Part shown: positions 5,836 to 52,381 of the stretch, piece by piece
How positions within the stretch are numbered: the stretch's first letter is position 1
Layout: every line of letters begins with the position of its first letter
Assembly: GCA_964469225.1 (NCBI GenBank)
Contig: CAYXYC010000001.1
Span: 27,556-91,555, forward strand
Length of the DNA: 64,000 bases
Origin: an uncultured Candidatus Saccharibacteria bacterium
GTDB lineage: Bacteria > Patescibacteriota > Minisyncoccia > Phycocordibacterales > UBA9973
Direction: 5' to 3'
The notes under the pieces: model-generated
Told to the model about the DNA's origin: nothing
The model's database searches: none
What the model saw: the letters and a program-made list of their open reading frames with translations, nothing else
Translations under genes and position numbers: made by a program

Positions 5836-5837
5836 TT

Positions 5838-6731: not shown

Positions 6732-6739
6732 TATTTAGT

Positions 6740-9436
6740 ATGAATAAACGATCACGCATTCTCAATACGGGACTACAAATGCTTCTAGTAGCGTCTTTTT
6801 CCGTTTCGCATATTGCATATGGTGCATCAGAAGTAATTCCAACTGGACGCAATTTAAATTTTGATACAGTAAACACAAGCGCATACAAACCAAGTTCACA
6901 AAACATATCTAGTTCTGGTATTGCAATTAGCGTTCCAGGATGTACTGGCATTACAAATAAAGTGCAACGATCATTAGGTGGAGTTCTCTCTGGTAACCCA
7001 GAAGATCTTGTTGGTCTAGCTGATTCACTTATTGATTTTTCTAGTAACAGCGTAACAACTGCCGATCAAAATGTTGGTGATTCTCTAAAAAAATTATTTA
7101 CAACATCAAAAGATGATGCTTTCCGTGAAAATTGTATCAATGGTATCGGCTATCGTCTCGCAAAAAAACAACTTTCAGATATTACACAGAAAACATTAAA
7201 CTGGACTTCACATGGATATGATGGCGACCCACTCTTTGTTCGTGATCAAAGTTCTTTTTTCAAAGATATTTCAAACAAGGAAGTTATCCAAGCATCTAAA
7301 ACATACAGCGCCTCAAATTCAAGAAACGATTATCCATACGGTAAAGAATTTGCCCGAACAGCAATTAGTAGTAAAAAGGCGCAAAATAATTTTGAAGAGT
7401 CAGCAAAATCTGATTTGTCATATTATCTTGCACCAGGAGCAACACCAAAAAGTTTCAGTACAGACTTTTCACAGGGTGGATGGAATGGTTGGCTTGCCCT
7501 AACACAAAAACCTCAAAACAACCCTCTTGGATTCACGATGATTGCAAGTCAGCATATCGCAAACCAGTCAGCAGAAAAAATACAGAACCAACAAAATGAA
7601 TTAAATCAAAACAAGGGATTTCTCTCGGAGAAAAGATGTGTTGAATATTATCCAGCAACTGGAGGAGGGACGGGCACTGTCAGTACAACGGCTGGTGTGT
7701 ACGGAACAGCAAAAGGTGCATGTAAAACTTACGAAACAATTACTCCAGGAAGTATTATTGCTGAACAGGTTGCAACAGTGCTAACTTCACCAATTCGCCA
7801 ACTTGAACTTGCTGATGGGGTTAACGAATCACTCGGTGGCGTATTCAACTCACTCTTGAACAAACTCGGAATCCAAGGGCTACTTGGACTTTCTGGTTTT
7901 AATTCTGTAAGTAATGGATGGAAAGAAGTTGGTGGTTCTGGATACGGGTCAAATAGTTTTTCTTCACTCCAAGGCTCATTTATGACTGCCTTTGGAACAA
8001 GTTCATCGGGGCAAGACGACGCGATAATATCTGTACGAAAAGGCGATGGATGGAATTCAGATGAAAAGCCATTTGATCTAACAAAAGATCTTGGTAATAC
8101 ATATCTCCGTGGTGTCCCAAAAAGACTCGGCACTTGGGATGCAAAAAACAACATGACAACACCACTTGCTGGATCGGGAGAAACACCCCGCCAGTTAGTT
8201 CCAAGTACTGGAACGAAAAATACTTTTTATGTTGTGTCTACGGCTGGAAACACTGAACTCTCTGAACCAGAAAGTTGTTTCCCAATCAGTTATCCAAATG
8301 GAACAACATCAAACTGCTGGCAACGCGGTGACCTTGTGCTTTTTGACGGTGACCAGTGGGTGAGTGCAAAATTCTGGAATGGTGTTGATGAAAAAGGTGG
8401 GTTAAAAGACGCAGTAACTGGTAAAAGAATCCGCATTATTGACAAAAAGGGTGTTATTCAAATTCAGCAAGACTACATCAGAGCGGTCAAAGCCTCAATG
8501 AAAGAACTACCACCGATAATGCCTGCGCTTGGTGAACTTGATTATTGTATTCCTGGCCCAAATCCAAGTTGGTATGAAAGTGCCATATTGTCTAACGAAG
8601 CGCTTTCAGCATATATTAGTGGCATACAATTTGATCCGAACACTCTTGATCTCGCATTGCCTGACCCAAAACAATACGCAAGTGCGTATTATGGGCCAAC
8701 TCCTTGGAAACAATTAAACCCAGGAAAAGTTGAATCCTTCTTGCGTTTTTCATTTGCAAATATTCAAAAATCATTTGGAGATATTTTTAAACAGTATTTT
8801 AAAGAGTTTGCATTTTCAAGCATAGAGACTGCATTTTCTCAAGCAATCCAAGAAACTCAAGAATTACTCGATCAACAAAAAGAAGCAACCATAGGAAGTT
8901 TGGCTAACCAACTTAAGACATTACACGATGCATTAAATTCTATTTACGGACAGGGTGGTACTATGACGAGTGAATTTATTGTTAATAATGACAAAGAATT
9001 AGCAGATCTAAATCCTAATTATTTACCAATGGCAACAACTGGTATGTCTTTTACAAAAGACATTCGTATTTATGATGTAAACATTGCACAAGCAAACAAA
9101 GACTACCGAGACCTTCTTGATCAGGGTATTTCAAATATTTATCGTCTCAACATTATAAAATCAAAAGTTGATAAAATTATTAAGGCTGCTCAGGAACGAC
9201 GATCACGAACCGTTGGTATTGGCACAATACCTGATGATTGTTTAATGAATGAAGAGATCACATACCTGGGAGATGATGGTGTACCGACTGGAACAATTAA
9301 TGTTATTGATACAGTATCAAATACTGGAAGTGGATTAGGCGGTAGAGTTACTAGTGGATCGGGTACTGGTATTGGTAATGTTTATAATGGAAGTGAAGAA
9401 ATATCAGGTGGGGGACTTCAAGTAAACCCACAATAA
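6740..9436 (+). CDS. large secreted hypothetical protein (898 aa, Gly-rich C-terminus)
   Basis: Signal-like N-terminus (LQMLLVASFSVSHIAYGA); long ORF with consistent coding composition. Confidence 0.55.
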   Translation: MNKRSRILNTGLQMLLVASFSVSHIAYGASEVIPTGRNLNFDTVNTSAYKPSSQNISSSGIAISVPGCTGITNKVQRSLGGVLSGNPEDLVGLADSLIDFSSNSVTTADQNVGDSLKKLFTTSKDDAFRENCINGIGYRLAKKQLSDITQKTLNWTSHGYDGDPLFVRDQSSFFKDISNKEVIQASKTYSASNSRNDYPYGKEFARTAISSKKAQNNFEESAKSDLSYYLAPGATPKSFSTDFSQGGWNGWLALTQKPQNNPLGFTMIASQHIANQSAEKIQNQQNELNQNKGFLSEKRCVEYYPATGGGTGTVSTTAGVYGTAKGACKTYETITPGSIIAEQVATVLTSPIRQLELADGVNESLGGVFNSLLNKLGIQGLLGLSGFNSVSNGWKEVGGSGYGSNSFSSLQGSFMTAFGTSSSGQDDAIISVRKGDGWNSDEKPFDLTKDLGNTYLRGVPKRLGTWDAKNNMTTPLAGSGETPRQLVPSTGTKNTFYVVSTAGNTELSEPESCFPISYPNGTTSNCWQRGDLVLFDGDQWVSAKFWNGVDEKGGLKDAVTGKRIRIIDKKGVIQIQQDYIRAVKASMKELPPIMPALGELDYCIPGPNPSWYESAILSNEALSAYISGIQFDPNTLDLALPDPKQYASAYYGPTPWKQLNPGKVESFLRFSFANIQKSFGDIFKQYFKEFAFSSIETAFSQAIQETQELLDQQKEATIGSLANQLKTLHDALNSIYGQGGTMTSEFIVNNDKELADLNPNYLPMATTGMSFTKDIRIYDVNIAQANKDYRDLLDQGISNIYRLNIIKSKVDKIIKAAQERRSRTVGIGTIPDDCLMNEEITYLGDDGVPTGTINVIDTVSNTGSGLGGRVTSGSGTGIGNVYNGSEEISGGGLQVNPQ

Positions 9437-9440
9437 AATT

Positions 9441-10940
9441 ATGGAACCACAACACAACAGTAGAAAACGAGCGATTACTATTACGATTATTGTCGTAGCA
9501 ATTCTTTTGCTTGTTGTTTATATTTTGTCTCAAACAACAACAATCTTTGGAACAAAGGGATCATCAACAAGTAATAAAAGTTTTATACCTCTTCTTGGAA
9601 CTTCAAAACAAAAAGCAGTAAACCCGATTGATCAAGGAGAAGAGGTAACCCTTCCAACAGGAACAGTCACGCAGACAACAGGTGGTGGTGAGCCAACAAA
9701 CAACCCGCTCCCAACACCAAATGGCAAAGGTCCATTTGTAGTACTCTCGGTTACACCCAAAACACTTCCAGTTGCTGGTGGCAAAATAAAGCTTACATGG
9801 CAAGGAGAAAATGTCATTTCTTGTATCCCAAGTTGGACAGGAAAGAAAATCACTCAAACAAGTGGCACCTCAAATGAAATCACAGTAAAGAAAACGCGTG
9901 TCTTTGGTATTTCGTGTGCAAACGGACAAGGACAGCAGGCAAGCGCAAGCACACAAGTTACTGTTGGAGAAAATGCCCTTCAGGTATCACTTCGTGCAAC
10001 ACCAAACACGCTCATTGAATCAGGAAATGTTGTTTTAACATGGACAAGCAAGAGCACAGTGAAATCTTGTACACCAGGATGGACAAACAAAAAAGATGCT
10101 GCTCAAGGAGAAGTAACTGTTCCTGTTAGTCAATCACAAACATTTCTAATTAGTTGTACAGATGGCGCTCTAACCGAAATTGCCGAAGCAGATGTTGTTG
10201 TTGGTTCATTTGAAAAAACCCCTCAGTGTCGAGATGGAGTTGATAATGATGGAGACAACGCCGTAGATGCACTAGATAGCGCGTGTCATAGCAATTTTGA
10301 TGCGAGTGACGACACAAGTTATGTTCCAACAATTGCCGACGAGGCGCGTCTTCCAACTGAAACAACAAATGCAGACAGGTGTAAGATTGTAGACGATAAT
10401 CCACTTACATTTACTGATGTTGAAAAACGACAACTTGATCTTCTGCTTCGTCAGTTCTATCGAATCGCGCCAAATCTAAAAACTGAAGATGATGTTGTTT
10501 TTGAAAAAGAAGCTCGTCTTGGATATATTGATCTTGTTAAAGAAGTAAAAAGTCTAACAAAACAATGTTACGCACAACAATATCCAGCAGAAAACAACGC
10601 GGTTCGTGTCGCTCTCGGCGCAACACCGAACTACACAGGCCCTCTTGAAAAGAAAACTAATCCATATTTCCAGCCAGATGGAGTTGTAAGTTCACCATCA
10701 TACATCACAAAAAGTTATATCGAGTCCAAATTTACCGCCCAGCAGAACACAATGATCGCCCAACAAGCACTCGTCGTGTCGAAGCTTGACGCAAAAATTA
10801 AATCTGCACAAACCAACGCTCAGGCAATACTCTTTACACAGTTACGAAACTACGAACAGAACATTCTAGACCAGTTTAAAAACAACATATCAACGGCAAA
10901 TCAATTCATCTTGATAGAAAAACTTCTTCAGGTTTGGTAA
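9441..10940 (+). CDS. membrane-anchored surface protein with two tandem Ig-like repeats and a DxDxDG-type acidic motif
   Basis: N-terminal TM (ITITIIVVAILLLVVYIL). Internal ~100-aa repeats (...TWQGENVISCIPSWTGKK / ...TWTSKSTVKSCTPGWTNKK). CRDGVDNDGDNAVD motif. Confidence 0.5.
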   Translation: MEPQHNSRKRAITITIIVVAILLLVVYILSQTTTIFGTKGSSTSNKSFIPLLGTSKQKAVNPIDQGEEVTLPTGTVTQTTGGGEPTNNPLPTPNGKGPFVVLSVTPKTLPVAGGKIKLTWQGENVISCIPSWTGKKITQTSGTSNEITVKKTRVFGISCANGQGQQASASTQVTVGENALQVSLRATPNTLIESGNVVLTWTSKSTVKSCTPGWTNKKDAAQGEVTVPVSQSQTFLISCTDGALTEIAEADVVVGSFEKTPQCRDGVDNDGDNAVDALDSACHSNFDASDDTSYVPTIADEARLPTETTNADRCKIVDDNPLTFTDVEKRQLDLLLRQFYRIAPNLKTEDDVVFEKEARLGYIDLVKEVKSLTKQCYAQQYPAENNAVRVALGATPNYTGPLEKKTNPYFQPDGVVSSPSYITKSYIESKFTAQQNTMIAQQALVVSKLDAKIKSAQTNAQAILFTQLRNYEQNILDQFKNNISTANQFILIEKLLQVW

Positions 10941-10999
10941 TCTGTGATTTTTGAGGATAAAAAGGGGATTTCTTGTTTAAAAATTGATATACTATTAGT

Positions 11000-13363
11000 G
11001 TGAAGAAACTAACTTCAACGATTATCTTCGTATCTATACTTGCGAGTACATTCTGCGCTCCTTTTTTTGGTAATGGATTTTCTCATTTTCAAATACCTCG
11101 TGCCGAAGCAATAAATGAAGCCAATTCTACTTATGGACTAAGTCAAGAATCTAAAGATGTTTTAAAAGAAGGAGAGGAAGCAAAAAAAGCAACCGCCCCT
11201 GATACCGACCCTGAAATGCTTCCAGCCTGTGGGTTTGATGCTGGGGTGGTACAAGTTGGGAATAGCAACGGAACATTTGTTGGTTGTATTGCTCAGGCAT
11301 TCTATTATGTGCTTTTTGTACCAACATCATATATCTTTGCTCTTTCTGGAATGTTTTTTGATTTCACTTTTGCATATTCTATTGATGATGGATCATACAA
11401 AACACCATTCATTACCCAAGGCTGGGCGCTAATTCGTGATATGGTCAACATGTTCTTTATCTTCGTGCTTCTCTTTGTTGCATTCAAAACAATTCTCAAT
11501 GTTGCGCATGGAAAAACAAAAGAACTTGTAATGAATGTTGTTATCATTGGAATATTGATTAATTTCAGTCTCTTTGCCGCACAAGTGATTGTTGATACAT
11601 CAAATATTCTAGCGCGAGTATTCTACAACGATGACGCAATCAAAATAACTAAGGGTGGTGAGAGGGGTGGTAGCGCACTTTATGACAAAGGAGCAAATGG
11701 TGAAGTGCAACTCTCGGCAGCACTGGTAAATAAAATTAATCCTCAAAACCTTATTAGTCAGGCAAGTAAAGTGAATGACATGTCGACAGTAGGAAACGCG
11801 GATTCTGCCTCTGACCTATCGTCAGACGGAGTACGAACACTAACTGCTGGTACATTTATTCTTGTTACAATTCTTGCTTCAATTGTTAATATTGTTGGAA
11901 TATTCACATTTCTTTCGGTTGGACTTATTTTTGTGGCACGAGTTATAGGGCTCTGGTTTGCAATGATTCTTGCACCGCTTGCATTCTTCACATATACCGT
12001 TCCGTCACTTCAAAATGAAAAGATTTTTGGGTGGAAAAGTTGGTGGTCTGATCTTTTCAGGCTGTCATTCCTGGCACCAATTTTTATATTCTTTATGTAT
12101 CTCATCCTTCGTTTCCTTGAAAGTGGAATGAATTTCATTGGTCTTGATAATCTCACTGGGGCTGAGTGGGTAATCGCGATTATCATTCCTTTTATTTTTA
12201 TAATGATAATGCTCCTTCAAGCAAAAAATATTGCAAAGGATTACGCAGGAACTATTGGTCAGACAATTACGAATTATGTTGCGGCAGCGGGAGGGTTTGC
12301 GCTTGCTGTTGGTACAGGCGGGGCAGCAATGATTGGACGAGGTATGGGGGGCATGGCGGCGCGCGCATCAGCAGGAGAGACACTCACACAACGATTTGCT
12401 GACCCAACCAAAAGGGGAACAATGAAATGGTATCAGAAGGCTGCGGGTTGGTCAGGAAACAAGCTTGGTATGAATAAGGTGTTTGGAAAGACCGTAGTTG
12501 GCGGTAGAGCAACAACCGGCGTTGGTGGAATCCTAAATAGGTCACAAGAAAAAGTTAACAAAGTTGATCACGCAAGACACACAGTAGATGAAGCCAAAGA
12601 AAAGGCTGGACTTAAAGATGTTGCATGGTCACGACTATCTGCAATACAACGGGAAAAAGTTCTTACTGAGTTTAAGAAAACAAATAAAGATAAACTCACA
12701 ACGGTGGCAGAGGAAAAAATAAAAAGTGGCTTAGCGTTCGATACCAGTGGTAACCCAATTCAAGGCTTCAGTGACTACAAGGCAGATAGACACTTAGACG
12801 AAGAACAAGCATACAGAGTGGCCAAGGGTATTACAGGAATGACACCACTAACAGCACCACAACAGGATGAATTAAACAAAAGAAAACTTGCGCTTGATAA
12901 AAAAATTAATAGCGACTACGAGAATACCATACTTAAACCAAATATTAATTTACAAGTATCAGTAGAAGCAGAAAAAGAATTTGAACACGAAAAAGAAGAA
13001 TCCAACAAACAAGTTTCCGGATTCACCCGCGCGACATCTCAGGCAAACACTGGTAGTTGGAATGTTAGCAATCTTTCACAACTTAAACAAGATAAAAGAG
13101 AAGGTGTATTTACCAAGGCCGCAACAGTAAGCACAGCACTTTTGAGTGGGCAATTACGCAATGCAATTGGAGCAATTGGCTTTAAATATGGAAAAGGAGC
13201 AACCGGTGAAGAAAAATACACCAACCAAAGCAAATTTATTGATGATTTGAAAAACGGTATTGCTGAAGCATTCAAAACAGCCAACATTAATGTAACAGTT
13301 AACACCGGCGGTAGTGGAGGAGAAAAGAAAAAAGATGATCACGGTGGCGGAGGGCATCACTAA
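11000..13363 (+). CDS. VirB6/TrbL-like polytopic membrane protein with long hydrophilic C-terminal extension (T4SS-like channel component candidate)
   Basis: Signal-like N-terminus, then at least 6 strongly hydrophobic helices (about 100-420 aa), then a ~350-aa K/E-rich tail ending GGSGGEKKKDDHGGGGHH. Its position upstream of VirB3/VirB4-like genes mirrors Tn916 orf15-17. Confidence 0.45.
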   Translation: MKKLTSTIIFVSILASTFCAPFFGNGFSHFQIPRAEAINEANSTYGLSQESKDVLKEGEEAKKATAPDTDPEMLPACGFDAGVVQVGNSNGTFVGCIAQAFYYVLFVPTSYIFALSGMFFDFTFAYSIDDGSYKTPFITQGWALIRDMVNMFFIFVLLFVAFKTILNVAHGKTKELVMNVVIIGILINFSLFAAQVIVDTSNILARVFYNDDAIKITKGGERGGSALYDKGANGEVQLSAALVNKINPQNLISQASKVNDMSTVGNADSASDLSSDGVRTLTAGTFILVTILASIVNIVGIFTFLSVGLIFVARVIGLWFAMILAPLAFFTYTVPSLQNEKIFGWKSWWSDLFRLSFLAPIFIFFMYLILRFLESGMNFIGLDNLTGAEWVIAIIIPFIFIMIMLLQAKNIAKDYAGTIGQTITNYVAAAGGFALAVGTGGAAMIGRGMGGMAARASAGETLTQRFADPTKRGTMKWYQKAAGWSGNKLGMNKVFGKTVVGGRATTGVGGILNRSQEKVNKVDHARHTVDEAKEKAGLKDVAWSRLSAIQREKVLTEFKKTNKDKLTTVAEEKIKSGLAFDTSGNPIQGFSDYKADRHLDEEQAYRVAKGITGMTPLTAPQQDELNKRKLALDKKINSDYENTILKPNINLQVSVEAEKEFEHEKEESNKQVSGFTRATSQANTGSWNVSNLSQLKQDKREGVFTKAATVSTALLSGQLRNAIGAIGFKYGKGATGEEKYTNQSKFIDDLKNGIAEAFKTANINVTVNTGGSGGEKKKDDHGGGGHH

Positions 13364-43275: not shown

Positions 43276-44247
43276 TTATTTGAATAATAGTTGATGAACA
43301 GAGCAGAAATGCGCGCTCCGTCCATCAATGACTTTTCGTAGTATAACACCTTTGCACTGTGTCTCGCCACGGCGTGGGCCTCGCTTGCCACAAGGTTCTT
43401 TTGTTTTGCGATACGCATTATGATGTAGCTGGAATTGTCCCCGTTTTCCATTTATGTCTCTATAATCAGACATTGAGTCTCCACCAAAATCTATACCTTT
43501 TGCAAGAACATTTAGCACTCCCTCATAGAGTGCTTTTTGTTTGGCGAGGGGGATGTGAGCCATTTTAGATTCTGGGTGAATACAAGCGAGCCAGAGCGCT
43601 TCGTCAGAATAGATGTTGCCAATACCAGCAATATTTGTCTGATCCATAAGTGCCGTTTTGATCGCCTTATTTGGTTTTCGTAATAATCGCGCTCGGAAGA
43701 TTTCAAAAGTGAAATTTTTGTCGAGTGGCTCAGGACCTAGACCTTCTAGGTGTGTCGTTTCGTGTGCAGTATCGGTATCGAGCAATGTCACCTTGCCGAA
43801 TTTTCTTGAATCACAAAATGCGAGGTGTTTGCCATTCGAAAGTGTGAATACGACATGAATAAATCTATTGAATGGGTCGTGGAATGCTTCGCGTTCGTCA
43901 GGTGCTGGTGTCCACTTATTTTCTTTTTTATTAAATACATAGTTTCCGTAGAGTAGGTGACCGGTCATTTTCAAGTGAACGAGAATTGTTCTTGCCCGTC
44001 CAGATTTATCTGCTTTAGAGTAGAGATTAATCAAAATATTTTTTGCTCGGCGTTCAACATTTTTCACCTTTGCCCCAACAATTTCCTTTTTGAATTTTTT
44101 ATAAAAAACCTCATCTTTGATTGTCTCGCGGAATTGTTTGATTGGATTTTTTCGTGCGAGGTCAGTCCAGACATCAGTAAAAGAAAGTCCAGGCAGGACT
44201 TTCTGTAAGCCGTTTACAGTTGTTGTAACTTCCGGTAGTTCAGGCAT
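43276..44247 (-). CDS. mutM: formamidopyrimidine-DNA glycosylase / endonuclease VIII family (Fpg/Nei)
   Basis: N-terminal MPELPEV (catalytic Pro2/Glu3), C-terminal zinc-finger cysteines. Confidence 0.8.
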   Translation of the reverse strand: MPELPEVTTTVNGLQKVLPGLSFTDVWTDLARKNPIKQFRETIKDEVFYKKFKKEIVGAKVKNVERRAKNILINLYSKADKSGRARTILVHLKMTGHLLYGNYVFNKKENKWTPAPDEREAFHDPFNRFIHVVFTLSNGKHLAFCDSRKFGKVTLLDTDTAHETTHLEGLGPEPLDKNFTFEIFRARLLRKPNKAIKTALMDQTNIAGIGNIYSDEALWLACIHPESKMAHIPLAKQKALYEGVLNVLAKGIDFGGDSMSDYRDINGKRGQFQLHHNAYRKTKEPCGKRGPRRGETQCKGVILRKVIDGRSAHFCSVHQLLFK

Positions 44248-44248
44248 A

Positions 44249-44827
44249 TTATTTCCCTCCTAAAATTTTGAGTGCTTCTTTGATGCGGGCATTTGTTCCT
44301 TCGACAGAAGGGGATATTTGTTTTAGTGCGTCACGAGCTTCGTTTTGTGAATAGCCGAGTGCTTTGAGTGCTTCGATAATATCACTTTCTTCTCGAAGCA
44401 CACCAGGTGTGTGACTGCCACCAGTATGTGCTTTTAATTTATCACGAAGTTCTAGGACTATTTTGTCTGCTGTTTTTCTACCAATGCCAGAAACTTTATT
44501 TAGATAACTTGTATCACCAGTTGCAATGGCTTTCTTTAGGGTATCGAGTGAGGCGACGGTGAGTATTGAGAGGGCAGATTTTGGTCCAATACCAGAGACA
44601 TCAAGGAGAAGTTCAAAGAATGACAATTCATCTATTGTAGGGAATCCATAGAGGTCGAGAGAATTTTCACGGACAGCTGTGTATGTCCAAAGTGCGACTG
44701 TGTCACCCATGCCGTATGCCCCCATGGTGTCAGTTGTGATAAATACTTTATATCCAACACCACTAACATCAATGACAAAAAACTTATCAGTCGTGTAAAT
44801 AATAGTGCCTTCAATTCGTGAAATCAT
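44249..44827 (-). CDS. ruvA: Holliday junction DNA helicase RuvA
   Basis: MISRIEGTIIYTTDKFFVIDVSGVGYKV N-terminal OB domain, HhH motifs, C-terminal domain III. Confidence 0.85.
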   Translation of the reverse strand: MISRIEGTIIYTTDKFFVIDVSGVGYKVFITTDTMGAYGMGDTVALWTYTAVRENSLDLYGFPTIDELSFFELLLDVSGIGPKSALSILTVASLDTLKKAIATGDTSYLNKVSGIGRKTADKIVLELRDKLKAHTGGSHTPGVLREESDIIEALKALGYSQNEARDALKQISPSVEGTNARIKEALKILGGK

Positions 44828-44984
44828 GTGTATAGTATACTCGTTTTTTGATAATTTTGAGAGCGTTTACTTTTGTGATTTTTTCTGGTATTATAACCCT
44901 GTTCGGTTCTGCCGTGTCTCGGCGTTTCTGAATTACAAAATCCTGTTTAAAAATGTAGATTTATAAAATTAAAAATTTTACCTT

Positions 44985-45239
44985 ATGCCAATTACACAAT
45001 CAGCAAAAAAGGCGCTTCGTGGCTCGCTTCGAAAGAAAGCAGTCAATGACCGCCGAAAGAAGATAATGAAGGATTCAATCAAGAAGATTGAAAAACTCGT
45101 CAAAGAAAAGAAAAAAGATGAAGCAAAGAAACTTCTCTCGTCTACATACAGTACAATCGACAAAGCAGCGAAGAAGGGTATTATAAAGAAAAACAATGCT
45201 TCTCGCAAAAAATCTCGTCTTTCAAAAATCACAAAGTAA
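44985..45239 (+). CDS. rpsT: 30S ribosomal protein S20
   Basis: MPITQSAKKALRGSLRKKAVNDRRK... K/R-rich 84 aa matching the S20 pattern; followed by an intrinsic terminator at 45243-45275. Confidence 0.85.
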   Translation: MPITQSAKKALRGSLRKKAVNDRRKKIMKDSIKKIEKLVKEKKKDEAKKLLSSTYSTIDKAAKKGIIKKNNASRKKSRLSKITK

Positions 45240-45299
45240 TCAAAACCCCGACCAATGTCGGGGTTTTGATTTGTGTTTATTGCGTGGCATAATCAATAT

Positions 45300-45572
45300 A
45301 TGAAACAAGGAGAACTGTTTTTCTTTTACGGCGAAGAATGCCCGCACTGTAAAAAAATGGAGGCGTATGTTGACCAACTTATTGGGGAAGGTTTTCTGAT
45401 ACAGAAAGTTGAATGTTGGCACAACAAGGCAAATGAAGAAATGTTTGTTGAAATGGATTGCGAGGATGAACCATGCGGTGGAGTGCCTTTTTTTGTAAAC
45501 AAAAAGACCAAGAAAACAGTTTGTGGGGAAGTGTCATACGAAGAACTTAAAGCATGGGCAGGAGGTGAATAA
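45300..45572 (+). CDS. thioredoxin-fold CxxC protein (glutaredoxin/thioredoxin-like)
   Basis: FFFYGEECPHCKKM CxxC motif; start at MKQGELF (the ORF track starts at 45273). Confidence 0.6.
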   Translation: MKQGELFFFYGEECPHCKKMEAYVDQLIGEGFLIQKVECWHNKANEEMFVEMDCEDEPCGGVPFFVNKKTKKTVCGEVSYEELKAWAGGE

Positions 45573-45619
45573 TGTGTTGCGAAATGGGTTTGCATAGTGT
45601 AGATTGTGTTGGTGTAATT

Positions 45620-45691
45620 GGTCCCGTCGTTCAATGGATAGGACGTAACTTTGCGGAAGTTATGATGCAGGTTCGATTCCTGCCGGGATCA
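45620..45691 (+). tRNA. tRNA-Arg (anticodon GCG as read)
   Basis: GGTCCCG acceptor / GTTC D-stem / TAACT-TTGCGGA-AGTTA anticodon arm (G37) / GCAGG-TTCGATT-CCTGC T-arm / CGGGATC-A. Its 3' 15 nt are repeated 4.1 kb downstream. Confidence 0.7.
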
Positions 45692-47180
45692 CCCCATAGG
45701 AATTAGAGGTCAGAAATGTCTCTTTTACTTTGAAAAGACTACATATTTCTGCGGTTCGAAATTTTTCTCCGTCAAAGGTGATACCTTTTGGAAAATCGAA
45801 CCACTGTAACTGAATTTTTTCATTCGGTTCTGCTAAAGCCCATGTATTACCAGGGTTTTTTAGGAAGTCGGCAATAAAATCGAGCATGGCTTCAATCCCA
45901 ACAAATTCCTGTGACGAACCTGTTATGGCCGCATTTGCTTTCAGCAGTTCTGATTCTATATACCCCAATTGTTCACGCAAAATACTATCGGTAATTACTC
46001 CGTCAAGGTTTTTCTGAATGAGTATTCTTTGTTTTTGCTTCAGGTTGCTGATATGTTGTTCAAGTTGCTTCGATTCCTTTTGCTCGGTTTCCTGTTCCCC
46101 GATGAGGTGTTTTTTAATAAGTTTGTAGAACTTGTCATAATGCTTGTCATTCAGACTAAACTTGTTTAAAAAACTTTTAAATTCATTCTCGAATGTTTCT
46201 TTTCTAAAGTTAGCAAATTTGATATGTAGGAAACGGTAATATGGATACATGGTGCTTCTGCCTTTAGCCCAACAACCCGTCAACTTGGTGCCTGTTGAAT
46301 GACTAACAAATCGCCTTAATGGAAAGTCAGGGTGTTCGGTCAGATACTTGAAATTTCTACGGGTACGATGTTTGACTACTTGCTGTACCTGTTCGAATAA
46401 TTCCTCAGAGATAATTGGTTCATACAATCCTTTGTGCCGTTCTCCAAACTTCACTATCCATCCGGCATAAACTTCATTTCTGAGCATCATATAGAAATAT
46501 GATTTAACAATAGGCTTGCCGTTTCTGCTTTTTAATTCTTCTCGTATGGCCCATCTGTATATTTCTTCCACTGGAACGATATTTTGGGCGACTTGCTTAA
46601 ACACTTTTCGGACAAGTGGAGCAGTATCATTAGGAGCAATAGTAGCCTTGCCGTTAATCCTGCGGATATTGTCATATCCCACCGGGGCCATCCATACATA
46701 GCGACCTTCGCGCATTGCATCTTTCATTCCTTCAGAACATCGTTCAGCTCGTACCTCGTTATCAAACTGTCCGATACTGGAAATCATATTTTCCATTAAT
46801 CGGCCTGCCGGAGTATCTTCAATATGTTCAGTAGCAGATTCAACACCGACTCCATAGTTTTTTAAAATAATTTTCAAATGCCCATAGTCGTAATTCTGTC
46901 GTGAAAAACGGTCAATCTTATAAAAAATCACTGCACTGATGCGGTTTTTTGACAATGCACAATAATGAAGCAACCGTTGTAGTTCTGTACGGTTTTGAGT
47001 CTTGGCACTTTCTCCCTTTTCAAGAAAAATCTCAGCCACGTCATATCCATTTTTGAGAGCATATTCTTTACAAATACGTTCCTGCGAACTGAGACTATTC
47101 CCGTCATCAACTTGCTCCTTTGTCGATAGCCGGACACGATTTTTACATCCTGTCCGGTTTTTTATATACCCACAATTCAT
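45660..47180 (-). CDS. large serine recombinase (integrase) of the integrated element
   Basis: Catalytic-domain motifs RVRLSTKEQ (Ser nucleophile), SLSSQERICKEYALKNGY, ...IFYKIDRFSRQ, followed by recombinase and coiled-coil regions. The last 11 codons (…VIPAGIEPAS) are encoded by the complement of the tRNA-Arg 3' end. Confidence 0.8.
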   Translation of the reverse strand: MNCGYIKNRTGCKNRVRLSTKEQVDDGNSLSSQERICKEYALKNGYDVAEIFLEKGESAKTQNRTELQRLLHYCALSKNRISAVIFYKIDRFSRQNYDYGHLKIILKNYGVGVESATEHIEDTPAGRLMENMISSIGQFDNEVRAERCSEGMKDAMREGRYVWMAPVGYDNIRRINGKATIAPNDTAPLVRKVFKQVAQNIVPVEEIYRWAIREELKSRNGKPIVKSYFYMMLRNEVYAGWIVKFGERHKGLYEPIISEELFEQVQQVVKHRTRRNFKYLTEHPDFPLRRFVSHSTGTKLTGCWAKGRSTMYPYYRFLHIKFANFRKETFENEFKSFLNKFSLNDKHYDKFYKLIKKHLIGEQETEQKESKQLEQHISNLKQKQRILIQKNLDGVITDSILREQLGYIESELLKANAAITGSSQEFVGIEAMLDFIADFLKNPGNTWALAEPNEKIQLQWFDFPKGITFDGEKFRTAEICSLFKVKETFLTSNSYGVIPAGIEPAS

Positions 47181-47644
47181 CCAACCACGTATTATTAACT
47201 GTAAAATCACATTCAAAGAGAGCACTACTAGAGCGCAACATTTCATTTACAGGACAATCTTAAATAATACGATATGGTAAAACACACAATAGATATACTA
47301 CGGGACAAATAAAAAGAGGGGCCAACCCGTAGATTGAACCCCACCTTTGTAAAATTTTGCATTTACTTGAATCAAAGGAACTTGTAAATCCGATTCGTGT
47401 AAATTTTATCAAAGTAAAGCAATTCTTGCAAATTATCCAATAGGTGGGTTCAGATATGGCAGGGTTCCCTGCGGATGATCGTTCTTAGAGAGCGACCACC
47501 ATCCCATATTGCAAAGCTTCTTTTCTCAGAGTGCTTTCCGGCACCCTGTGTGTCATCAGTATTTCTGATACTGGTGGCGTGCGATGTAACCTGTCAGTCG
47601 GTATTTCAGTTCAGATTTTTAACAAATTTTTAAATAGTAATTAA

Positions 47645-48502
47645 ATGAAAAATAAAAATAAATTTTCAGATCAAATTAGTAAAGCTATCGGCACGATTAA
47701 GGAGTGCCTTAGGAAAATGACTGCCGAAGCTATTTACCTTGGTCAGCAACCGTTAGAAAATGCTGACCATACCATCTCCCTTGCTGATCGTGTAATGCCC
47801 ATTACCCGTATGGCGGAAATGCTCATTGCCGACATTGCACTTCTTCTTAATCCAAAACACGATAAAGCAGAACACAAGGTACTGCATATCCAGGCAAAAA
47901 TTATTGAGGATACACTGGACGAAAAAATCATTGAGGAAGAGAAACGTCTTAATTTGGAGGGGCGTGAAAAAAGTGATTTACTCAAACCCGGATTATTTTG
48001 CCTGTTATGGCTTGTATCAGCGGTAGCTTTGTATTGGGGTGAAGCACGCTTCCTAACCGATTCACTACAAGTTGTTGCAACGACTCGGGCAGATGCGCTA
48101 ACCTATGCAGTTGGGATTTGCATGGCTCTTATAATCATCAGTCATGGAGTACCAATGTTTATCAATATTTATCTTTCGAAACCATGGATTAGAAGAATTA
48201 GCCGTGTTTTTTTATTCCTGTTTGTCGTTGGAATATTTTATGGTCTGGGGTATTGGAGAAGTAAATATTTACATGATATGGGAAAGTCAGCCCCACCACC
48301 ATGGCAGTTTGCCATTTTTAATCTCGGATTTTTCATTGCCTTCTATACCGTAGCTGAACTGCTTCTTCTTCCGTACGCACCAGCCCTCTGGTCAGCTTGC
48401 AAGAAGTTTTGGATACGGTTACGAAAAGAATGGTTCGCAAGGCGAAAAGTAAAAGCAAAAAACAGTGTGGTTATAATACCTGAAAATTTAATCCAGAAAT
48501 AG
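47645..48502 (+). CDS. cargo membrane protein: N-terminal soluble domain plus C-terminal predicted 4-TM domain
   Basis: 285 aa; hydrophobic helices LFCLLWLVSAVALYW, VGICMALIIISHGVPMFINIYL, VFLFLFVVGIFYGLGYW, FAIFNLGFFIAFYTVAELLLL; no recognised family. Confidence 0.45.
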   Translation: MKNKNKFSDQISKAIGTIKECLRKMTAEAIYLGQQPLENADHTISLADRVMPITRMAEMLIADIALLLNPKHDKAEHKVLHIQAKIIEDTLDEKIIEEEKRLNLEGREKSDLLKPGLFCLLWLVSAVALYWGEARFLTDSLQVVATTRADALTYAVGICMALIIISHGVPMFINIYLSKPWIRRISRVFLFLFVVGIFYGLGYWRSKYLHDMGKSAPPPWQFAIFNLGFFIAFYTVAELLLLPYAPALWSACKKFWIRLRKEWFARRKVKAKNSVVIIPENLIQK

Positions 48503-48854
48503 ATTACAATGCCACAATTGCATCATAAATAGGATTTTTTAAAACCAAGGTTGCAAAGTTACAAAAAATCACTTTCTATCAATTAACCATTTTGTCCGAT
48601 GAATTAATACTATCGTTTAAATAGTCATATTGATAGTTGAATAATATTCTTACTTTTTTACACATTTCACTGCTTTTCAGTATAATATGTGGATAAAATG
48701 TTTTAACTTTCAAGAAAATTTCAATGAATATTCAATTGATTAAATTATATAAAAAAACAGGGCAAGCTTGCAGGCTTAACCCTGTTTATAATTTAATCAG
48801 GACTGACCAAGAGTCCTGTATTCACAATACCAAATATACCATGATTCCTCAGTT

Positions 48855-49523
48855 GTGCAAACTTTCATTATGGGGATTTATCCACTCTTCTTGGTCAGTT
48901 TTGAATGTAGAAGTTATATACCTCGAAAATCATTCAAATGGCTTATGGAACATAGTAATATTTCATGGAACCTGACGGATCACTCTGTGGTGGAAAATCA
49001 GTTGCTTTTTTTGCAAAGTAACTCCGAAGAAAGCATGTTTGTAACCACTCTAAAGGAGATTTGGCCAGAGAAGGATATTGCGGATTTGTTACCGGAAAAC
49101 AAAGTTCAACCTGAAGAGTTTTTTGCTCTTGTGGATGACTGTAAAGAAAAATGGGTTAGCTATAAAATCTTATGCGATACTCAGGAAGTGAATAATTTCT
49201 TAATTGGCTTAGTTGCACCTTTAAAATTATCCCCATTCGCAAACCTGTTAAAGTTAATCAAATCCAAAATTGACTTATCTGGCTTTACGAAACATCTTTC
49301 AAAGGTGGCGTCCGAACTCAATAGTGGTACTCCGGATCTTAGCAATAGATTAAGTGAAATTTTCCTTGTCGGAAAATCAATAAGTTTAGATGGCAAACTT
49401 CCATTTACTGTAACAGATACTCAAGCGGTGACCTTACTGGAATCTAATCCTGCCAATAAATTTACTGATTTACTTTTGTGCGTCATTATGGCATCAAAGA
49501 AATCAAAGGCATCCACATTCTGA
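48855..49523 (+). CDS. cargo hypothetical protein
   Basis: 222-aa ORF with no motif recognised; preceded by a TATAAT-like box and two hairpins. Confidence 0.35.
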   Translation: MQTFIMGIYPLFLVSFECRSYIPRKSFKWLMEHSNISWNLTDHSVVENQLLFLQSNSEESMFVTTLKEIWPEKDIADLLPENKVQPEEFFALVDDCKEKWVSYKILCDTQEVNNFLIGLVAPLKLSPFANLLKLIKSKIDLSGFTKHLSKVASELNSGTPDLSNRLSEIFLVGKSISLDGKLPFTVTDTQAVTLLESNPANKFTDLLLCVIMASKKSKASTF

Positions 49524-49621
49524 ATAACCTCATACTCTCTGCCAACTACTCCCAGTACCGTATCGGTAAGGGGAGGGAATTACACTTGGAGCTAGTAAAA
49601 TTGTTTTTGGAATCTTTTAAG

Positions 49622-49670
49622 TTCACAATATAAAAAGCTGAACTTCGGTTCGGCTTTTTATATTGTGGAA
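49622..49670. repeat. long perfect hairpin (17-bp stem extended by a 5-bp inner stem around a UUCG loop)
   Basis: ttcacaatataaaaagcTGAAC-ttcg-GTTCGgctttttatattgtgga. Confidence 0.6.
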
Positions 49671-50044
49671 ACGCGCGAGTAAACTACTTTACTCGCGCGC
49701 AGGAATCGAAAAGCTTTTCCATGTTTGCGATAGCAAACGGAAAAGGTGTACTGTTCGTGTAACGAAAGATTGTCCTGCCGGGATCACAAAGCATGTATTT
49801 TAAAATAGTCCCCTGCGGGACTATTTTTGCTTTGTGATGACCGCAGTGGTGTTTTGCCAGTAGGCAAAACCACGAGGGGCGGGCTGCGAAAATTTCGAAC
49901 GGCGGTGAGAAATTATTTGTAGCCACAAGTAAATATTTCGAGCAAGCAAACTGCTTTGCTTGCGTGCAGGAATCGAAAGACTGGTGTTGTTTTGATTACA
50001 AAACCACCAATCACGCGCCGTAGGCGAGATTACCCTGCCGAGGT

Positions 50045-50620
50045 TTAATTTACCTTATCTACCTCCTCCAACAACTCTGGGAATTCTTCTGTTCCCATAT
50101 CTTCAAAACAGAAATGCCCCATTTTTTCAAATGATACAACGCGTGCATCTTTTATTTTTTCTGTAAGAATTTTCACGCTCTCTTGTACATCTGCCATATC
50201 ATCGGTAGAACTGAAAATAGTAATACCTTTTGTTTTTGAAATAATATTTTCATCAATACCAAACTCAAACATTTTGCTTTGAAGTGAATGTGTTGGATCA
50301 ATCCATGGCGCAACGAGAATTACTTTGCCGACATGAATATCATGTTCGCTCAAATACCTGACAATAAATCCAGCCCCACACGAATGCCCGATGAGAATTG
50401 TTTCTGTGTCGAGTGGGAAATATTCAAATACCTGTTTCCATGCATCGTAATCAGGTGCATACGGATGAGGCATCTCCGGTGTCTGTGCGAGAATATCCTT
50501 GACTATGAGTTGTCGTTGTATCCAGGGAAGCCAGTGGGAGTTTGATGCGGCGCCGTTTCGGGCATCACGGTGTTCATTTTCGCTATCCCACATTCCATGA
50601 ATAATGATTGCTGTTTTCAT
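50045..50620 (-). CDS. alpha/beta-hydrolase-fold serine hydrolase (YdeN/RBBP9-like)
   Basis: GHSCGAG (GxSxG nucleophile elbow); 191 aa. Confidence 0.6.
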   Translation of the reverse strand: MKTAIIIHGMWDSENEHRDARNGAASNSHWLPWIQRQLIVKDILAQTPEMPHPYAPDYDAWKQVFEYFPLDTETILIGHSCGAGFIVRYLSEHDIHVGKVILVAPWIDPTHSLQSKMFEFGIDENIISKTKGITIFSSTDDMADVQESVKILTEKIKDARVVSFEKMGHFCFEDMGTEEFPELLEEVDKVN

Positions 50621-50625
50621 ACAAA

Positions 50626-51099
50626 TTAGAATCCCAGTTTTTCCATGAAGACAACTGATGGTGATTCATCAAGTTCATCCATAACAGTCAAAACTTTACT
50701 GAGTGATTCTTTAACATCCTGTTCAATATCTTGGGAAAGGGGAATGGTAAATGTTGGGAGAAATTTTTGACCAGTACGAATGAGAAGTTTACTGCCAGTA
50801 TCTGTTTTCTTTATTCGGAAGCCTTTCATTTTCTTCCACTCATGCTTTTCGTTGCCAATTGTGAATCCATCGGTTTCGATAGTGATTGTTATATCTCGTG
50901 GACGGCGAATATTGAAAAGAATGATTGATGCTCCACCAACAAGAATAAATACAGCAAACATATAATTACCAATAAAAATTGCCCCAACAGCAAATAGAAA
51001 GGCAACAATTCCTACACCCCAAAACCAATCAACGCTTCGCTCGATGTGATTGTATTCTGGAAAACTCCATGATGTTGTTTTGAGAATGATTTCGTCCAT
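50626..51099 (-). CDS. membrane protein with bacterial PH-like domain (YdbS/YdbT-like)
   Basis: Two-TM hairpin VGIVAFLFAVGAIFIGNYMFAVFILVGGASIILF, then a beta-rich domain. Confidence 0.45.
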   Translation of the reverse strand: MDEIILKTTSWSFPEYNHIERSVDWFWGVGIVAFLFAVGAIFIGNYMFAVFILVGGASIILFNIRRPRDITITIETDGFTIGNEKHEWKKMKGFRIKKTDTGSKLLIRTGQKFLPTFTIPLSQDIEQDVKESLSKVLTVMDELDESPSVVFMEKLGF

Positions 51100-51171
51100 A
51101 AGGATAGTATATCACCATCATTATAACAAAACACCTCCGACGATAATCGTCGGAGGTGTTTTTGAGGAAGC

Positions 51172-51987
51172 TTATTTCTTGATAACTGCTTGGAGGTCTG
51201 TTCGAGCCTTTGCAACAGCATCTTTGAATGCTTGTTCAGCAGACTTGATTGCAGTCTCGCGAGCCTTTTTCAATTCTGCGAGAGCTGGATTCTTGTCGCT
51301 GTTCTTTCTTGATTCTTGTAATGCTTTGCGGGCAGTATTTACAGTCTTGTTAAATGTTGCCTGTGCATTCTTACTTGAAACACCAGCGGCACAATCTGCC
51401 TTTGCTTTGGCAACCGCAGAATCAACAGTTGTTTTGAATGTTGCTATACCAGCATCAACAGTACTTGCGTGGTTTGCCATAAGGGCTACAAGTCCATCAC
51501 GGTAAACTTTGACGGCAGCATCAACTGCTGTTTGGCGAGCAGTAACTGCAGACTGGACTGCTGTTTTGTAAGTAGTGATAGCAGTTTTCTGTTCGTCAGT
51601 TTTTGCTTTTCCTGCCATTTTATCCCAATTCTCTGCTCGTTTGCCTTCTGATTTTGTGCGAGCTTCGGCGCGCTTTGCATCTATTTCACCTTCTTTCTTT
51701 GCAAGTTTTTCTGATTTTTCTGCAAGTTGTTTTGCTTGGCGAGCTTCAACAGCATTTACTTGGTCAGCAAATTTTGTTGATGCCTCACCGATACGAGCAC
51801 AGAAATTTGCGTTTGCCTTCTTTAATCCTGTGTCCTTGTCTTCAACTTTTGTTGGAGCAAGTGGATCAACGACAGGTCTTCCTTCTTCTGCGAATGCGAG
51901 CACTGGAAGCATTGTGAAAAGTGTTAAAACTCCCGCAACGCCCTTTTTAAAATTAGAATATATCATCTTGTTGTGTGACCAATTCAT
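51172..51987 (-). CDS. secreted Ala/Lys-rich coiled-coil protein
   Basis: Signal-like VAGVLTLFTMLPVLAFA, then an A/K/T-rich repetitive sequence. Start may be the internal MIYSNFKK; a bidirectional terminator lies downstream at 51129-51163. Confidence 0.5.
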   Translation of the reverse strand: MNWSHNKMIYSNFKKGVAGVLTLFTMLPVLAFAEEGRPVVDPLAPTKVEDKDTGLKKANANFCARIGEASTKFADQVNAVEARQAKQLAEKSEKLAKKEGEIDAKRAEARTKSEGKRAENWDKMAGKAKTDEQKTAITTYKTAVQSAVTARQTAVDAAVKVYRDGLVALMANHASTVDAGIATFKTTVDSAVAKAKADCAAGVSSKNAQATFNKTVNTARKALQESRKNSDKNPALAELKKARETAIKSAEQAFKDAVAKARTDLQAVIKK

Positions 51988-52381
51988 CCATATTAGGAGA
52001 ATTAAGGTCGGTTATTAATAATTCTTCATCCATAATACTTTCATCTTCAATGGTTTGGTTCTCAACTGCAAGATCCATAATGACTTCGTCATAAGGCTTG
52101 CGGCTTGATAGAGAGAACGCGCCGATGAAAATAAGAAGTAGAAAGGTTGGAACCAATATTATGTTTCTTGTTTTCCATGCCATAGTAATTTCTTGTATAG
52201 TCTGGTTAATAATGTTCGACGCCCTTCTAATAGTATAACGCACGAGAATCGGTTTTGTGACTGTGGACTGCGAAAGTCCTTGTAGTGTGTGCCAAAAACG
52301 CATCCGATCTGGCGTCTCGTCGGTTTTGAAACTTTTCTCTATGTATATTTCGAATTCGTTATCAGTCATTTGTTTTTTCAT
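51953..52381 (-). CDS. putative anti-sigma factor (single-TM) coupled to the ECF sigma factor
   Basis: Start ATGs at 52381 or 52369 overlap the sigma-factor stop (ATGACTGA); single TM NIILVPTFLLLIFIGAF. Confidence 0.45.
   Translation of the reverse strand: MKKQMTDNEFEIYIEKSFKTDETPDRMRFWHTLQGLSQSTVTKPILVRYTIRRASNIINQTIQEITMAWKTRNIILVPTFLLLIFIGAFSLSSRKPYDEVIMDLAVENQTIEDESIMDEELLITDLNSPNMDELVTQQDDIF

Follow-up and report, generated by a model that had tools for sequence, protein, structure and literature searches.

Analysis of a 64,000-nucleotide stretch of DNA (the window) from contig CAYXYC010000001.1 of an uncultured Candidatus Saccharibacteria bacterium identified a gene for a large serine recombinase (LSR) that ends, on the opposite strand, inside the 3' end of a tRNA-Arg(GCG) gene. 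The locus is very probably a composite, consisting of an intact tRNA gene, an LSR element of approximately 3.93 kb flanked by the sequence TCAC, and a separate structured module. The element appears to be a decayed representative of a large clade of serine integrases of the candidate phyla radiation (CPR), apparently not described before, that targets the last bases of tRNA genes and splits its own gene in the process.

The LSR would perform the conventional exchange of a serine integrase between attP and attB with a common core of only 4 bp. In this scheme attB would consist of the extreme 3' end of the tRNA and the terminator hairpin that follows it, and attP would lie inside the LSR open reading frame (ORF), at a conserved Val codon approximately 25-60 residues from the natural C-terminus. 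Comparison shows the LSR gene to have been cut by integration, its body running into the antisense of the tRNA to gain nine residues and a stop codon, and its natural tail being left at the other end of the element (from 49626 down to 49546). The module (hairpin 49624-49667 together with 49665-49787) would already have been present when the LSR element landed between it and the tRNA. As the module ends in a copy of the last 15 nt of the tRNA, its presence explains a 15-mer repeat found at the locus. The features on which this scheme is based are the following.

45620 to 45692, plus strand: intact tRNA-Arg(GCG), forming the B arm of attL (ARAGORN; Rfam RF00005)
45660 to 47246, minus strand: LSR gene, likely start at 47180 (Pfam Resolvase and Recombinase; PHROG integrase; alignment A1)
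45689 to 45692: TCAC crossover core of attL, in the discriminator region of the tRNA; its minus strand gives the Val codon GTG of the LSR plus one base (four-way att comparison)
49546 to 49626, minus strand: remnant of the LSR C-terminal tail, with an in-frame TAG where relatives continue (L001 match; P0002 alignment)
49623 to 49626: TCAC crossover core of attR (four-way att comparison)
49624 to 49667, plus strand: A/T-rich, terminator-like hairpin forming the B' arm of attB, located directly 3' of the tRNA in the empty site L176 (inverted repeat I7, 20-nt arms, 95% complementary)

The recombinase and its overlap with tRNA-Arg(GCG)

The recombinase ORF encodes 528 aa, with M23 as its likely start. 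It was found to match the Pfam domains Resolvase (PF00239, 2.3e-27) and Recombinase (PF07508, 3.9e-13, residues 206-293) as well as the PHROG integrase model (2.5e-68), and the catalytic-domain motifs quoted in an earlier note on this DNA are present. The catalytic Ser and Arg are kept, with R39 and S41 sitting in invariant columns of alignment A1. A sequence search of the PDB matched the catalytic domains of LSRs. An AlphaFold2 (AF2) model of P0002, a homologue with 91% identity, was aligned by Foldseek end to end over more than 500 columns with full-length Bxb1, PhiC31, LI and other LSR-DNA cryo-EM structures (E down to 2.6e-17). Pfam Zn_ribbon_recom gave no match on the LSR, and the usual Cys ligands are missing or not conserved. 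In the model of P0002, β-hairpins (293-327 and 468-470) flank long helices (346-421), and a zinc-ribbon domain with its coiled-coil insertion may be present in structure only. Taken together, the Pfam, PDB and Foldseek results support placing the window recombinase among the large serine recombinases. No tyrosine integrase domain (Phage_integrase) was found in any ORF between 45660 and 49626.

The tRNA was placed at 45619-45694 by ARAGORN and at 45620-45691 by Rfam (59.9 bits). The complement of its 3' end (T-arm and acceptor strand) forms the last 10 codons and the stop codon of the LSR ORF (45660-45692), essentially the 11 codons counted in the earlier note. The codons past the Val (45690-45692) are tRNA antisense and read IPAGIEPAS before the stop.

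The 15-mer TCCTGCCGGGATCAC was found in exactly two copies in the window (45678-45692 and 49773-49787), a number that did not change when two mismatches were allowed, and none of 100 shuffles gave two or more matches, which agrees with the view of the earlier note that a chance repeat is unlikely. The first copy spans the last base of the T-loop, the 3' strands of the T-stem and acceptor, the discriminator and one further base of the tRNA. The second copy marks a displaced ancestral tRNA 3' end, also as had been proposed, given that in L136, a more distant syntenic relative, the tRNA leads straight into the trailer that in the window begins after 49787 (155 nt at 78% identity). An inverted match, exact over 12 nt (CAGGACAATCTT / AAGATTGTCCTG), was also seen between 47250-47261, just upstream of the LSR ORF, and 49766-49777, overlapping the start of the second 15-mer; it was set aside, a few such matches being expected by chance in 8 kb.

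Ends of the element and attachment sites

The ends of the element were delimited by comparison with two related contigs. L176, found by scanning metagenomes for the 3' half of the tRNA, is a syntenic empty site, sharing rpsT and a thioredoxin-like gene upstream (76.5% identity) and the hydrolase and following genes downstream (73%). On this contig the tRNA is joined straight to the counterpart of window 49623-49664 (L176 1374-1415; 97.6% identity). L001 carries an unsplit, long-tailed LSR gene with 91% identity to that of the window. The L001 sequence follows window 47133-45689 (86% identity) as far as GTGA, beyond which it corresponds to the minus strand of window 49626-49594; there, L001 3294-3326 abuts the GTGA core and agrees in 28 of 33 bases (85%; E = 0.001 against the whole window). 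Read in frame, the tail segment of the window gives VNLKDSKNNFTSSKCNSLPLPIRYWE followed by a stop codon, and aligns with the tail of P0002 (VNLKVHKYNSTPSAIKSL...YWRQIGHEVIRL).

The four att sites fit the scheme B-O-B', P-O-P', B-O-P' and P-O-B', with O being TCAC.

attB (L176): ...cctgccggga TCAC aatataaaaagc
attL (window): ...cctgccggga TCAC cccataggaatt
attR (window): ...cttttaagt TCAC aatataaaaagc
attP (L001, reverse complement): ...cttttaagt TCAC cccataggaatt

As junction strings, the reconstructed attB reads tRNA...GGGATCAC joined to AATATAAAAAGC and the reconstructed attP reads ...TTTTAAGTTCAC joined to CCCATAGGAATT, with a hypothetical empty site of the 15-mer type reading tRNA joined to AAAGCATG. 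Only four bases are common to the sites, in line with what a serine integrase would require, and the crossover dinucleotide presumably lies within them. By the empty site, the unsplit gene and the four-way comparison, three independent lines that agree, the LSR element is delimited to 45693-49622 plus one copy of the core.

The earlier note had proposed a mobile element inserted by the LSR at the 3' end of tRNA-Arg, and this is borne out by L176 and L001. It had also taken the 15-nt repeat to be the att identity of the LSR. This part is not upheld, with the junctions sharing only TCAC, and the long direct repeat that had seemed anomalous for a serine recombinase ceases to be one.

The hairpin at 49624-49667 is 97.6% identical to its counterpart in L176 even though the flanking genes are only 73-77% identical. 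This could be due to constraint as the B' arm of the LSR site, to constraint as a terminator, or to recent spread together with the module.

Distribution and gene architecture of the LSR family

More than 1,200 homologues of the LSR were found at approximately 50% identity. In alignment A1, comprising 21 homologues, similarity reaches a conserved 'S..V', after which two classes of C-terminus were distinguished. Class A, to which the window LSR belongs, ends in 10-20 residues resembling tRNA antisense (GIEPAS, GLEPATPSLQMMCSTR), and class B carries a tail of 35-80 aa ending in a conserved amphipathic motif (W..I..E...L.EIL).

A survey scanning one genome per species returned 80 loci. The 3' end of an opposite-strand tRNA was found inside the end of the LSR ORF in 39-40 of these (ARAGORN), nearly all being metagenome-assembled genomes of Patescibacteria/CPR. 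The overlapped tRNAs are mostly Ala-TGC, with Ala-GGC, Ala-CGC, Arg-CCT, Arg-GCG, Lys, Leu (two anticodons), Glu, Tyr and Val also represented. Class B LSRs are mostly found in Bacteroidota chromosomes with no tRNA nearby; examples that are full-length and tail-bearing, at 45-51% identity in large Bacteroidota chromosomes, are L010, L014, L016, L022, L031, L038, L059 and L078, among others. The family spans CPR and Bacteroidota with different placement of attP.

A hidden Markov model (HMM) of the class B tail was run on the 10 kb preceding each class A LSR gene, translated in six frames, using the opposite strand as an internal control. All of the top 15 hits were located on the LSR-sense strand, 2-10 kb upstream. 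At the far boundary, 10 of the 12 tail-hit loci analysed show a host terminator hairpin, then the core GTGGAC, then an in-frame 'VD..FWN.FA.E..YL..ILKE...' ending in a stop codon (frame checked by hand on one locus, L051; in L027 and L048 the scripted search did not locate the core). Read on the other strand, GTGGAC is GTCCAC, the 3' end of tRNA-Ala, and the near boundary of these loci reads '...S S x GTG GAC' before continuing into tRNA antisense. Joining the two halves yields proteins like the short-tailed members of class B (L016, L025, L049, L072). Comparison across these loci supports a gene that is split by integration: attP would lie inside the LSR ORF at the conserved Val codon, and the natural tail would be swapped for a peptide encoded by tRNA antisense.

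Tail-hit elements range from 3.8 to 10.7 kb in size, and their cargo varies between loci with the exception of a conserved ORF of approximately 80 aa, which cargo clustering and alignment showed to overlap the LSR start in 11 tail-hit loci and L001. This small ORF ('...EGQR.LLCSNK..RCPS...E.ALDYLA.ILVEAFL'; L001 1553-1804, L028 9757-10002, and also L020, L027, L030, L042, L048 and others) has no match in Pfam, PHROG, PADLOC or NCBIfam, and is a candidate for an accessory or recombination directionality factor (RDF). Almost no tRNA-derived direct repeats of at least 11 nt were found within 10 kb at the sister tRNA-linked LSR loci, which argues against repeat-bounded elements.

Further observations were made on individual relatives. 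L067 has a second full-length LSR ORF (5434-7125; 564 aa) with an intact tail a few kb upstream of its tRNA-linked LSR and may be a tandem pair of elements. L001 encodes a TraD/VirD4/HerA-like ATPase of 441 aa (150-1475; phrog_5156, 1e-59), suggesting that intact members of its element lineage carry a DNA-translocation function. Viral contigs gave only distant relatives of the LSR (28-32% identity), one of which adjoins tRNA-Ala. In L086, an IMG/VR contig of 42.6 kb predicted to be viral, an LSR relative with 30% identity (10001-11529) ends inside an antisense tRNA-Ala(GGC), and targeting of tRNA ends may extend to phages.

A structured module that trails tRNA genes

The region downstream of the LSR element contains the following features.

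49665 to 49787, plus strand: structured tRNA-trailing module M1, outside the LSR element, whose closing 3' strand is the second 15-mer (alignment A2; RNAalifold; R1)
49788 to 49930, plus strand: ancestral tRNA-Arg trailer, with a terminator hairpin at 49802-49827 followed by GTGATGACCGCAG, which repeats the tRNA 3' end imperfectly and in inverse orientation (L136/L184 homology; terminator scan; inverted repeat I15)
49932 to 50047, plus strand: second, more degenerate module copy M2, abutting the stop codon of the hydrolase gene (R1; direct repeat D2)

The same architecture was found 3' of tRNA-Arg(GCG) in many metagenome contigs that lack an LSR (L209, L113, L133, L150 and others). An A/T-rich hairpin comes first and is followed by the 3' strand of the acceptor in inverse copy (GTGATCCCG), a hairpin whose apex AACTNCTT is conserved, the reverse complement of the T-arm (GCAGGAATCGAA), and two more hairpins, the last having a GTA loop, before the 15-mer is reached. 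Three copies occur in tandem in L150 and two in L131. In the window, M1 is approximately 125 nt long, and M2 contains an exact 12-mer of the T-arm on the minus strand (49966-49977). An Rfam cmscan of 44000-52000 at E<=1 gave the tRNA as the sole match in the interval and none for the module.

Fourteen module copies align well (alignment A2), for which RNAalifold gave 27 pairs, 19 of them with compensatory double changes, and the loop sequences are fixed. A covariance model (R1) built from the aligned copies scored M1 at 124.6 bits and M2 at 67.6 bits. Among 100 tRNA-Arg metagenome loci, 34 matches to R1 passed E<1e-4; in the loci taken from genomes, matches were confined to those labelled Patescibacteria, Saccharibacteria or uncultured bacterium, with none in those labelled Bacteroidota. 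A strict pattern for inverse copies of tRNA 3' ends downstream of all tRNAs had matched in only 1 of 67 cases, was too stringent and was superseded by R1.

Genes for tRNA-His, -Leu, -Ala(GGC), -Lys and -Val are likewise trailed by co-oriented modules at a distance of 12-147 nt, and each module ends in the 3' sequence of its own tRNA. Across Patescibacteria and tRNAs of many identities the module ranges from approximately 110 to 190 nt (further copies: L008 14080-14241, L045 1874-2015, L012 12527-12632). Its 5' arm is the inverse of the 3' strands of the tRNA acceptor and T-stem, its 3' end copies the last ~15 nt of the tRNA, and its internal hairpins covary and have the conserved loops AACUNCUU and GUA.

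In five LSR-bearing loci (the window, L050, L047, L042 and L027) the distance from tRNA to module equals the length of the element, which indicates that the LSR element was inserted between the tRNA and a pre-existing module. The trailer at 49788-49930 is homologous (78%) to the sequence directly after tRNA-Arg in L136 and L184. Comparison thus shows the module to be independent of the LSR, and the displacement of the tRNA 3' end goes with the module, not with the recombinase. The single element of approximately 4.1 kb proposed in the earlier note thus resolves into an LSR element of 3.93 kb and a non-coding module of 146 nt that is found without an LSR elsewhere.

The module could be a structured trailer RNA that mimics an acceptor/T minihelix, or, in view of its flanking direct repeats, its tandem arrays and its presence in some relatives but not in others, a miniature insertion element. 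No fit in sequence, context or Rfam was seen with hammerhead, twister or pistol ribozymes, retron non-coding RNA or T-box elements, nor with a primer-binding site, the guide RNAs of TnpB/IscB or the bridge RNA of IS110.

Alternative explanations

The alternative that survives best concerns the nature of the module. It may be a miniature, non-autonomous integrative element of tRNA 3' ends that is mobilized in trans, for example by a tyrosine integrase targeting the T-loop, in which case the window would hold two tandem insertions arising by accretion. In L202, L204 and L209 the module is located between the tRNA and a GC-rich trailer hairpin that lies directly 3' of the tRNA in L157, L160, L147 and L163, and the 15-mer is duplicated on both sides of the module in the former three. 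The tandem arrays of L150 and L131, the trailing of at least six tRNA species by modules that each end in the 3' sequence of their own tRNA, and the lack of the module at the orthologous site of L176 and L136 are also in keeping with mobility. However, no integrase was found to be associated with the module, retargeting to many tRNAs would need many integrase specificities, and L176 retains just its first hairpin. Furthermore, the covarying stems and conserved loops point to a selected RNA or single-strand structure rather than to decaying att scars. This explanation is considered possible and is held only tentatively.

A second alternative returns to one element of approximately 4.1 kb (45693-49772), with the serine recombinase producing the 15-nt repeats through a long tRNA-derived identity in the manner of a tyrosine integrase. 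The repeat is exact and non-random, the whole block between its copies is an insertion relative to L136, with the ancestral trailer beginning after 49787, and in L050 a comparable repeat of 15 nt lies at a distance of 6 kb from the tRNA-Tyr. The repeat of L050, however, adjoins a module hit, and most tRNA-linked LSR loci have no tRNA-derived repeat of at least 11 nt within 10 kb. L176 joins the tRNA to 49623 onward and not to 49788, and joining at the 15-mer gives a non-homologous C-terminus, whereas joining at TCAC restores the tail of L001. In addition, the sequence 49627-49787 is found 3' of tRNA-Arg in many LSR-free contigs, sometimes in tandem. Contradicted as it already is by L176 and L001, an element bounded by the 15-mer is very improbable.

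Least probable of all is that the LSR is a resident gene with another role beside tRNAs (inversion, resolution or regulation), being not or no longer an integrase, and that its overlap is simply one of a compact genome: the overlap is extremely conserved over about 40 loci, CPR genomes are compact and no excised forms were found, but a syntenic relative (L176) lacks precisely the whole 3.93 kb, the genes between LSR and far boundary differ from locus to locus, at least eight different tRNA species are adjoined, and the tail remnants at the far end are explained only by recombination of a circle.

Several points weigh against the composite locus with a TCAC-flanked LSR element as set out above. 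No circular or excised form and no empty site from the same population was found, and two other assemblies of that population (L092 and L093, 99.9-100% identical) are both integrated. L001 is a linear contig of 3.7 kb and may itself be integrated somewhere rather than episomal; terminal overlaps indicating circular contigs were found neither in it nor in 11 other whole contigs. The full-length relatives in large Bacteroidota chromosomes lie away from tRNAs, so that an intact tail alone is no proof of an unintegrated state. Of the module, L176 contains the hairpin and nothing more, and for this reason the order of events, presumably module before LSR element, is not fully fixed. Finally, the loss of recombinase activity in the window copy, discussed below, is deduced from sequence.

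Cargo and state of the window copy

The interior of the LSR element contains three further features.

47247 to 47644, no strand assigned: non-coding stretch upstream of the LSR, in which the conserved small ORF of relatives is absent
47645 to 48502, plus strand: cargo ORF 1, membrane protein of 285 aa, 3'-truncated (two homologues; alignment)
48945 to 49523, plus strand: cargo ORF 2, 192 aa (222 aa from a GTG at 48855), gene fragment (phmmer; Pfam on the matches; tblastn)

Neither cargo ORF matched Pfam, PHROG, PADLOC or NCBIfam. The earlier note had described two cargo genes, the second of no recognizable family, and both ORFs do exist without a family match, but both were found to be fragments of larger genes. 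For cargo ORF 1 there are just two homologues (336-338 aa; 70% and 58% identity), to which it aligns over residues 1-273/295 of 338, and the last ~45-65 residues are missing. The homologues occur in mobilizable elements (L214 3751-9948 and L215 1439-12890) with a type IV coupling protein (T4CP), a relaxase, an HTH_17 protein and, in one of them, a tyrosine integrase. Both adjoin a CARDB/Por_Secre_tail gene, which suggests a Bacteroidota host and hints at gene flow between Bacteroidota elements and the CPR element of the window. Cargo ORF 2 was searched with phmmer against 1.84 billion representatives and matches only an internal stretch of ~150 aa (residues ~595-745) of proteins of 1,100-1,380 aa, on which Pfam identified KAP_NTPase. 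The KAP-NTPase-like fragment was placed by tblastn at 49032-49496, and frameshifted variants (P0124 and P0128) were found in other samples. Since the cargo amounts to the shortened copy of a membrane-protein gene otherwise seen in relaxase/T4CP elements, together with a KAP-NTPase-type fragment, the suggestion of a defence cassette or phage-satellite payload was dropped. Scans with Pfam, PHROG, PADLOC and NCBIfam identified no relaxase, coupling protein or oriT in the window copy, and the conserved ~80-aa ORF gave no tblastn match in the window.

The recombinase gene is itself damaged. Compared with L001 and the consensus, an in-frame deletion of 12 nt (four codons) between V38 and R39 (positions 47133 and 47132) takes AIYC out of KRVAIYCRVSTKEQ and leaves KNRV-RLSTKEQ. 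This affects β1, the central strand (residues 12-18) in the AF2 model of P0002, and the window LSR is the only full-length protein with a disrupted β1 among 120 homologues. The tail remnant has an in-frame TAG at a point where similarity to P0002 continues. As every coding feature of the element carries a lesion, we infer from these comparisons that the window copy is an immobilized relic whose recombinase has lost its activity, and not an active element. The earlier note had tied a decayed remnant to loss of the catalytic Ser or Arg; both residues are retained, and the relic state is indicated by the other lesions.

Relation to known systems and significance

The window LSR resembles the characterized LSRs (Bxb1, PhiC31, A118/LI, TP901-1 and SCCmec Ccr) in its Resolvase and Recombinase domains with catalytic Ser and Arg, in the predicted fold of its close homologue, and in the simplicity of its att sites, whose common core is very short (TCAC in the window, GTGGAC for the tRNA-Ala group). 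It differs in its target, the extreme 3' end of a tRNA gene, and in having attP inside the recombinase ORF, by which the C-terminus changes with the state of integration; in addition, a zinc-ribbon Pfam hit and an identified RDF are lacking here. Targets in t(m)RNA genes were recorded for 44.5% of tyrosine integrases compared with 14 of 297 serine integrases, and their use by the latter was said to have 'not been reported previously' and to need proof (Mageeney et al. 2020, PMC7192596). Islands formed in tRNA genes by tyrosine integrases (Islander-type) share with this locus an intact tRNA at one end, an adjacent integrase gene and a displaced 15-nt fragment of the tRNA 3' end downstream. Unlike in such islands, there is no tyrosine integrase in the interval, and the displaced fragment is part of a non-coding module and lies outside the LSR element, which ends distally at 49623-49626.

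Integrase genes that are interrupted by their own att site have been described as unique to the archaeal tyrosine integrases of the SSV type (PMC5861418). In these systems (Sulfolobus fuselloviruses), too, the att site lies inside the integrase gene, integration at a tRNA partitions that gene and a remnant persists at the far end. The enzymes, however, are tyrosine recombinases of archaea, and the split takes away much of the gene, whereas in the bacterial serine recombinase described here only a C-terminal tail of ~25-60 aa is detached and the recognized LSR domains stay whole. The streptococcal IME_Spy2096_SNF2 is similar in that a serine integrase has the element-borne recombination site reported inside its gene and not 3' of it, although this is one case, mentioned only briefly (Coluzzi et al. 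2017, PMC5357655). Its target differs, being the snf2 gene of an integrative and conjugative element and not a tRNA, and no family-wide pattern or conserved swapped tail was described. No description of LSR/tRNA elements of Patescibacteria or of the module was found in the literature, the collection searched being incomplete and the result amounting to absence of evidence only.

In the integration-dependent immunity of mycobacteriophages, attP lies in the repressor gene and integration, typically at a tRNA gene, removes a C-terminal tag (PMC3694055). There, as here, integration alters the 3' end of a gene to give two C-terminal forms of one protein; the protein affected in the phages is the repressor, the tail is a degradation tag and the enzyme is a tyrosine recombinase, in contrast to the recombinase itself being affected here. 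In this LSR family of Patescibacteria the position of attP inside the ORF may be functional, and the tail swap might act as an integration-state switch of the LSR. From the episomal form an LSR ending in the conserved amphipathic helix ('FWN.FA.E..YL..ILKE') would be made, and from the integrated form an isoform that lacks the tail and is tagged with tRNA antisense; the swap might set directionality or stability without an RDF or in addition to one. In the AF2 model, the tail of P0002 forms a disordered linker (494-513) and then a confidently predicted helix (522-543; predicted local distance difference test score 83-92), from which no packing partner of the helix could be read and no mechanism derived. 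Such a switch and, separately, the module being a new class of structured RNA or miniature mobile element are regarded as doubtful, if conceivable.

The window copy, as a decayed relic, is itself of little functional consequence, and its value lies in the architecture of the family and in the module. Approximately 40 sister loci, the empty site and the unsplit gene provide comparative evidence for a CPR clade that targets the last bases of tRNAs and whose recombinase gene, in SSV-like fashion, is split at an attachment site of its own. The tRNA-derived repeats of a widespread trailer module will mislead island finders that rely on repeats. Serine integrases are prized as tools for genome engineering. 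With the present LSR system it could be tested whether directionality is modulated by a C-terminal tail that can be detached, and its defined attB/attP pairs would be natural landing pads for genetics in Patescibacteria, organisms that are hard to manipulate.

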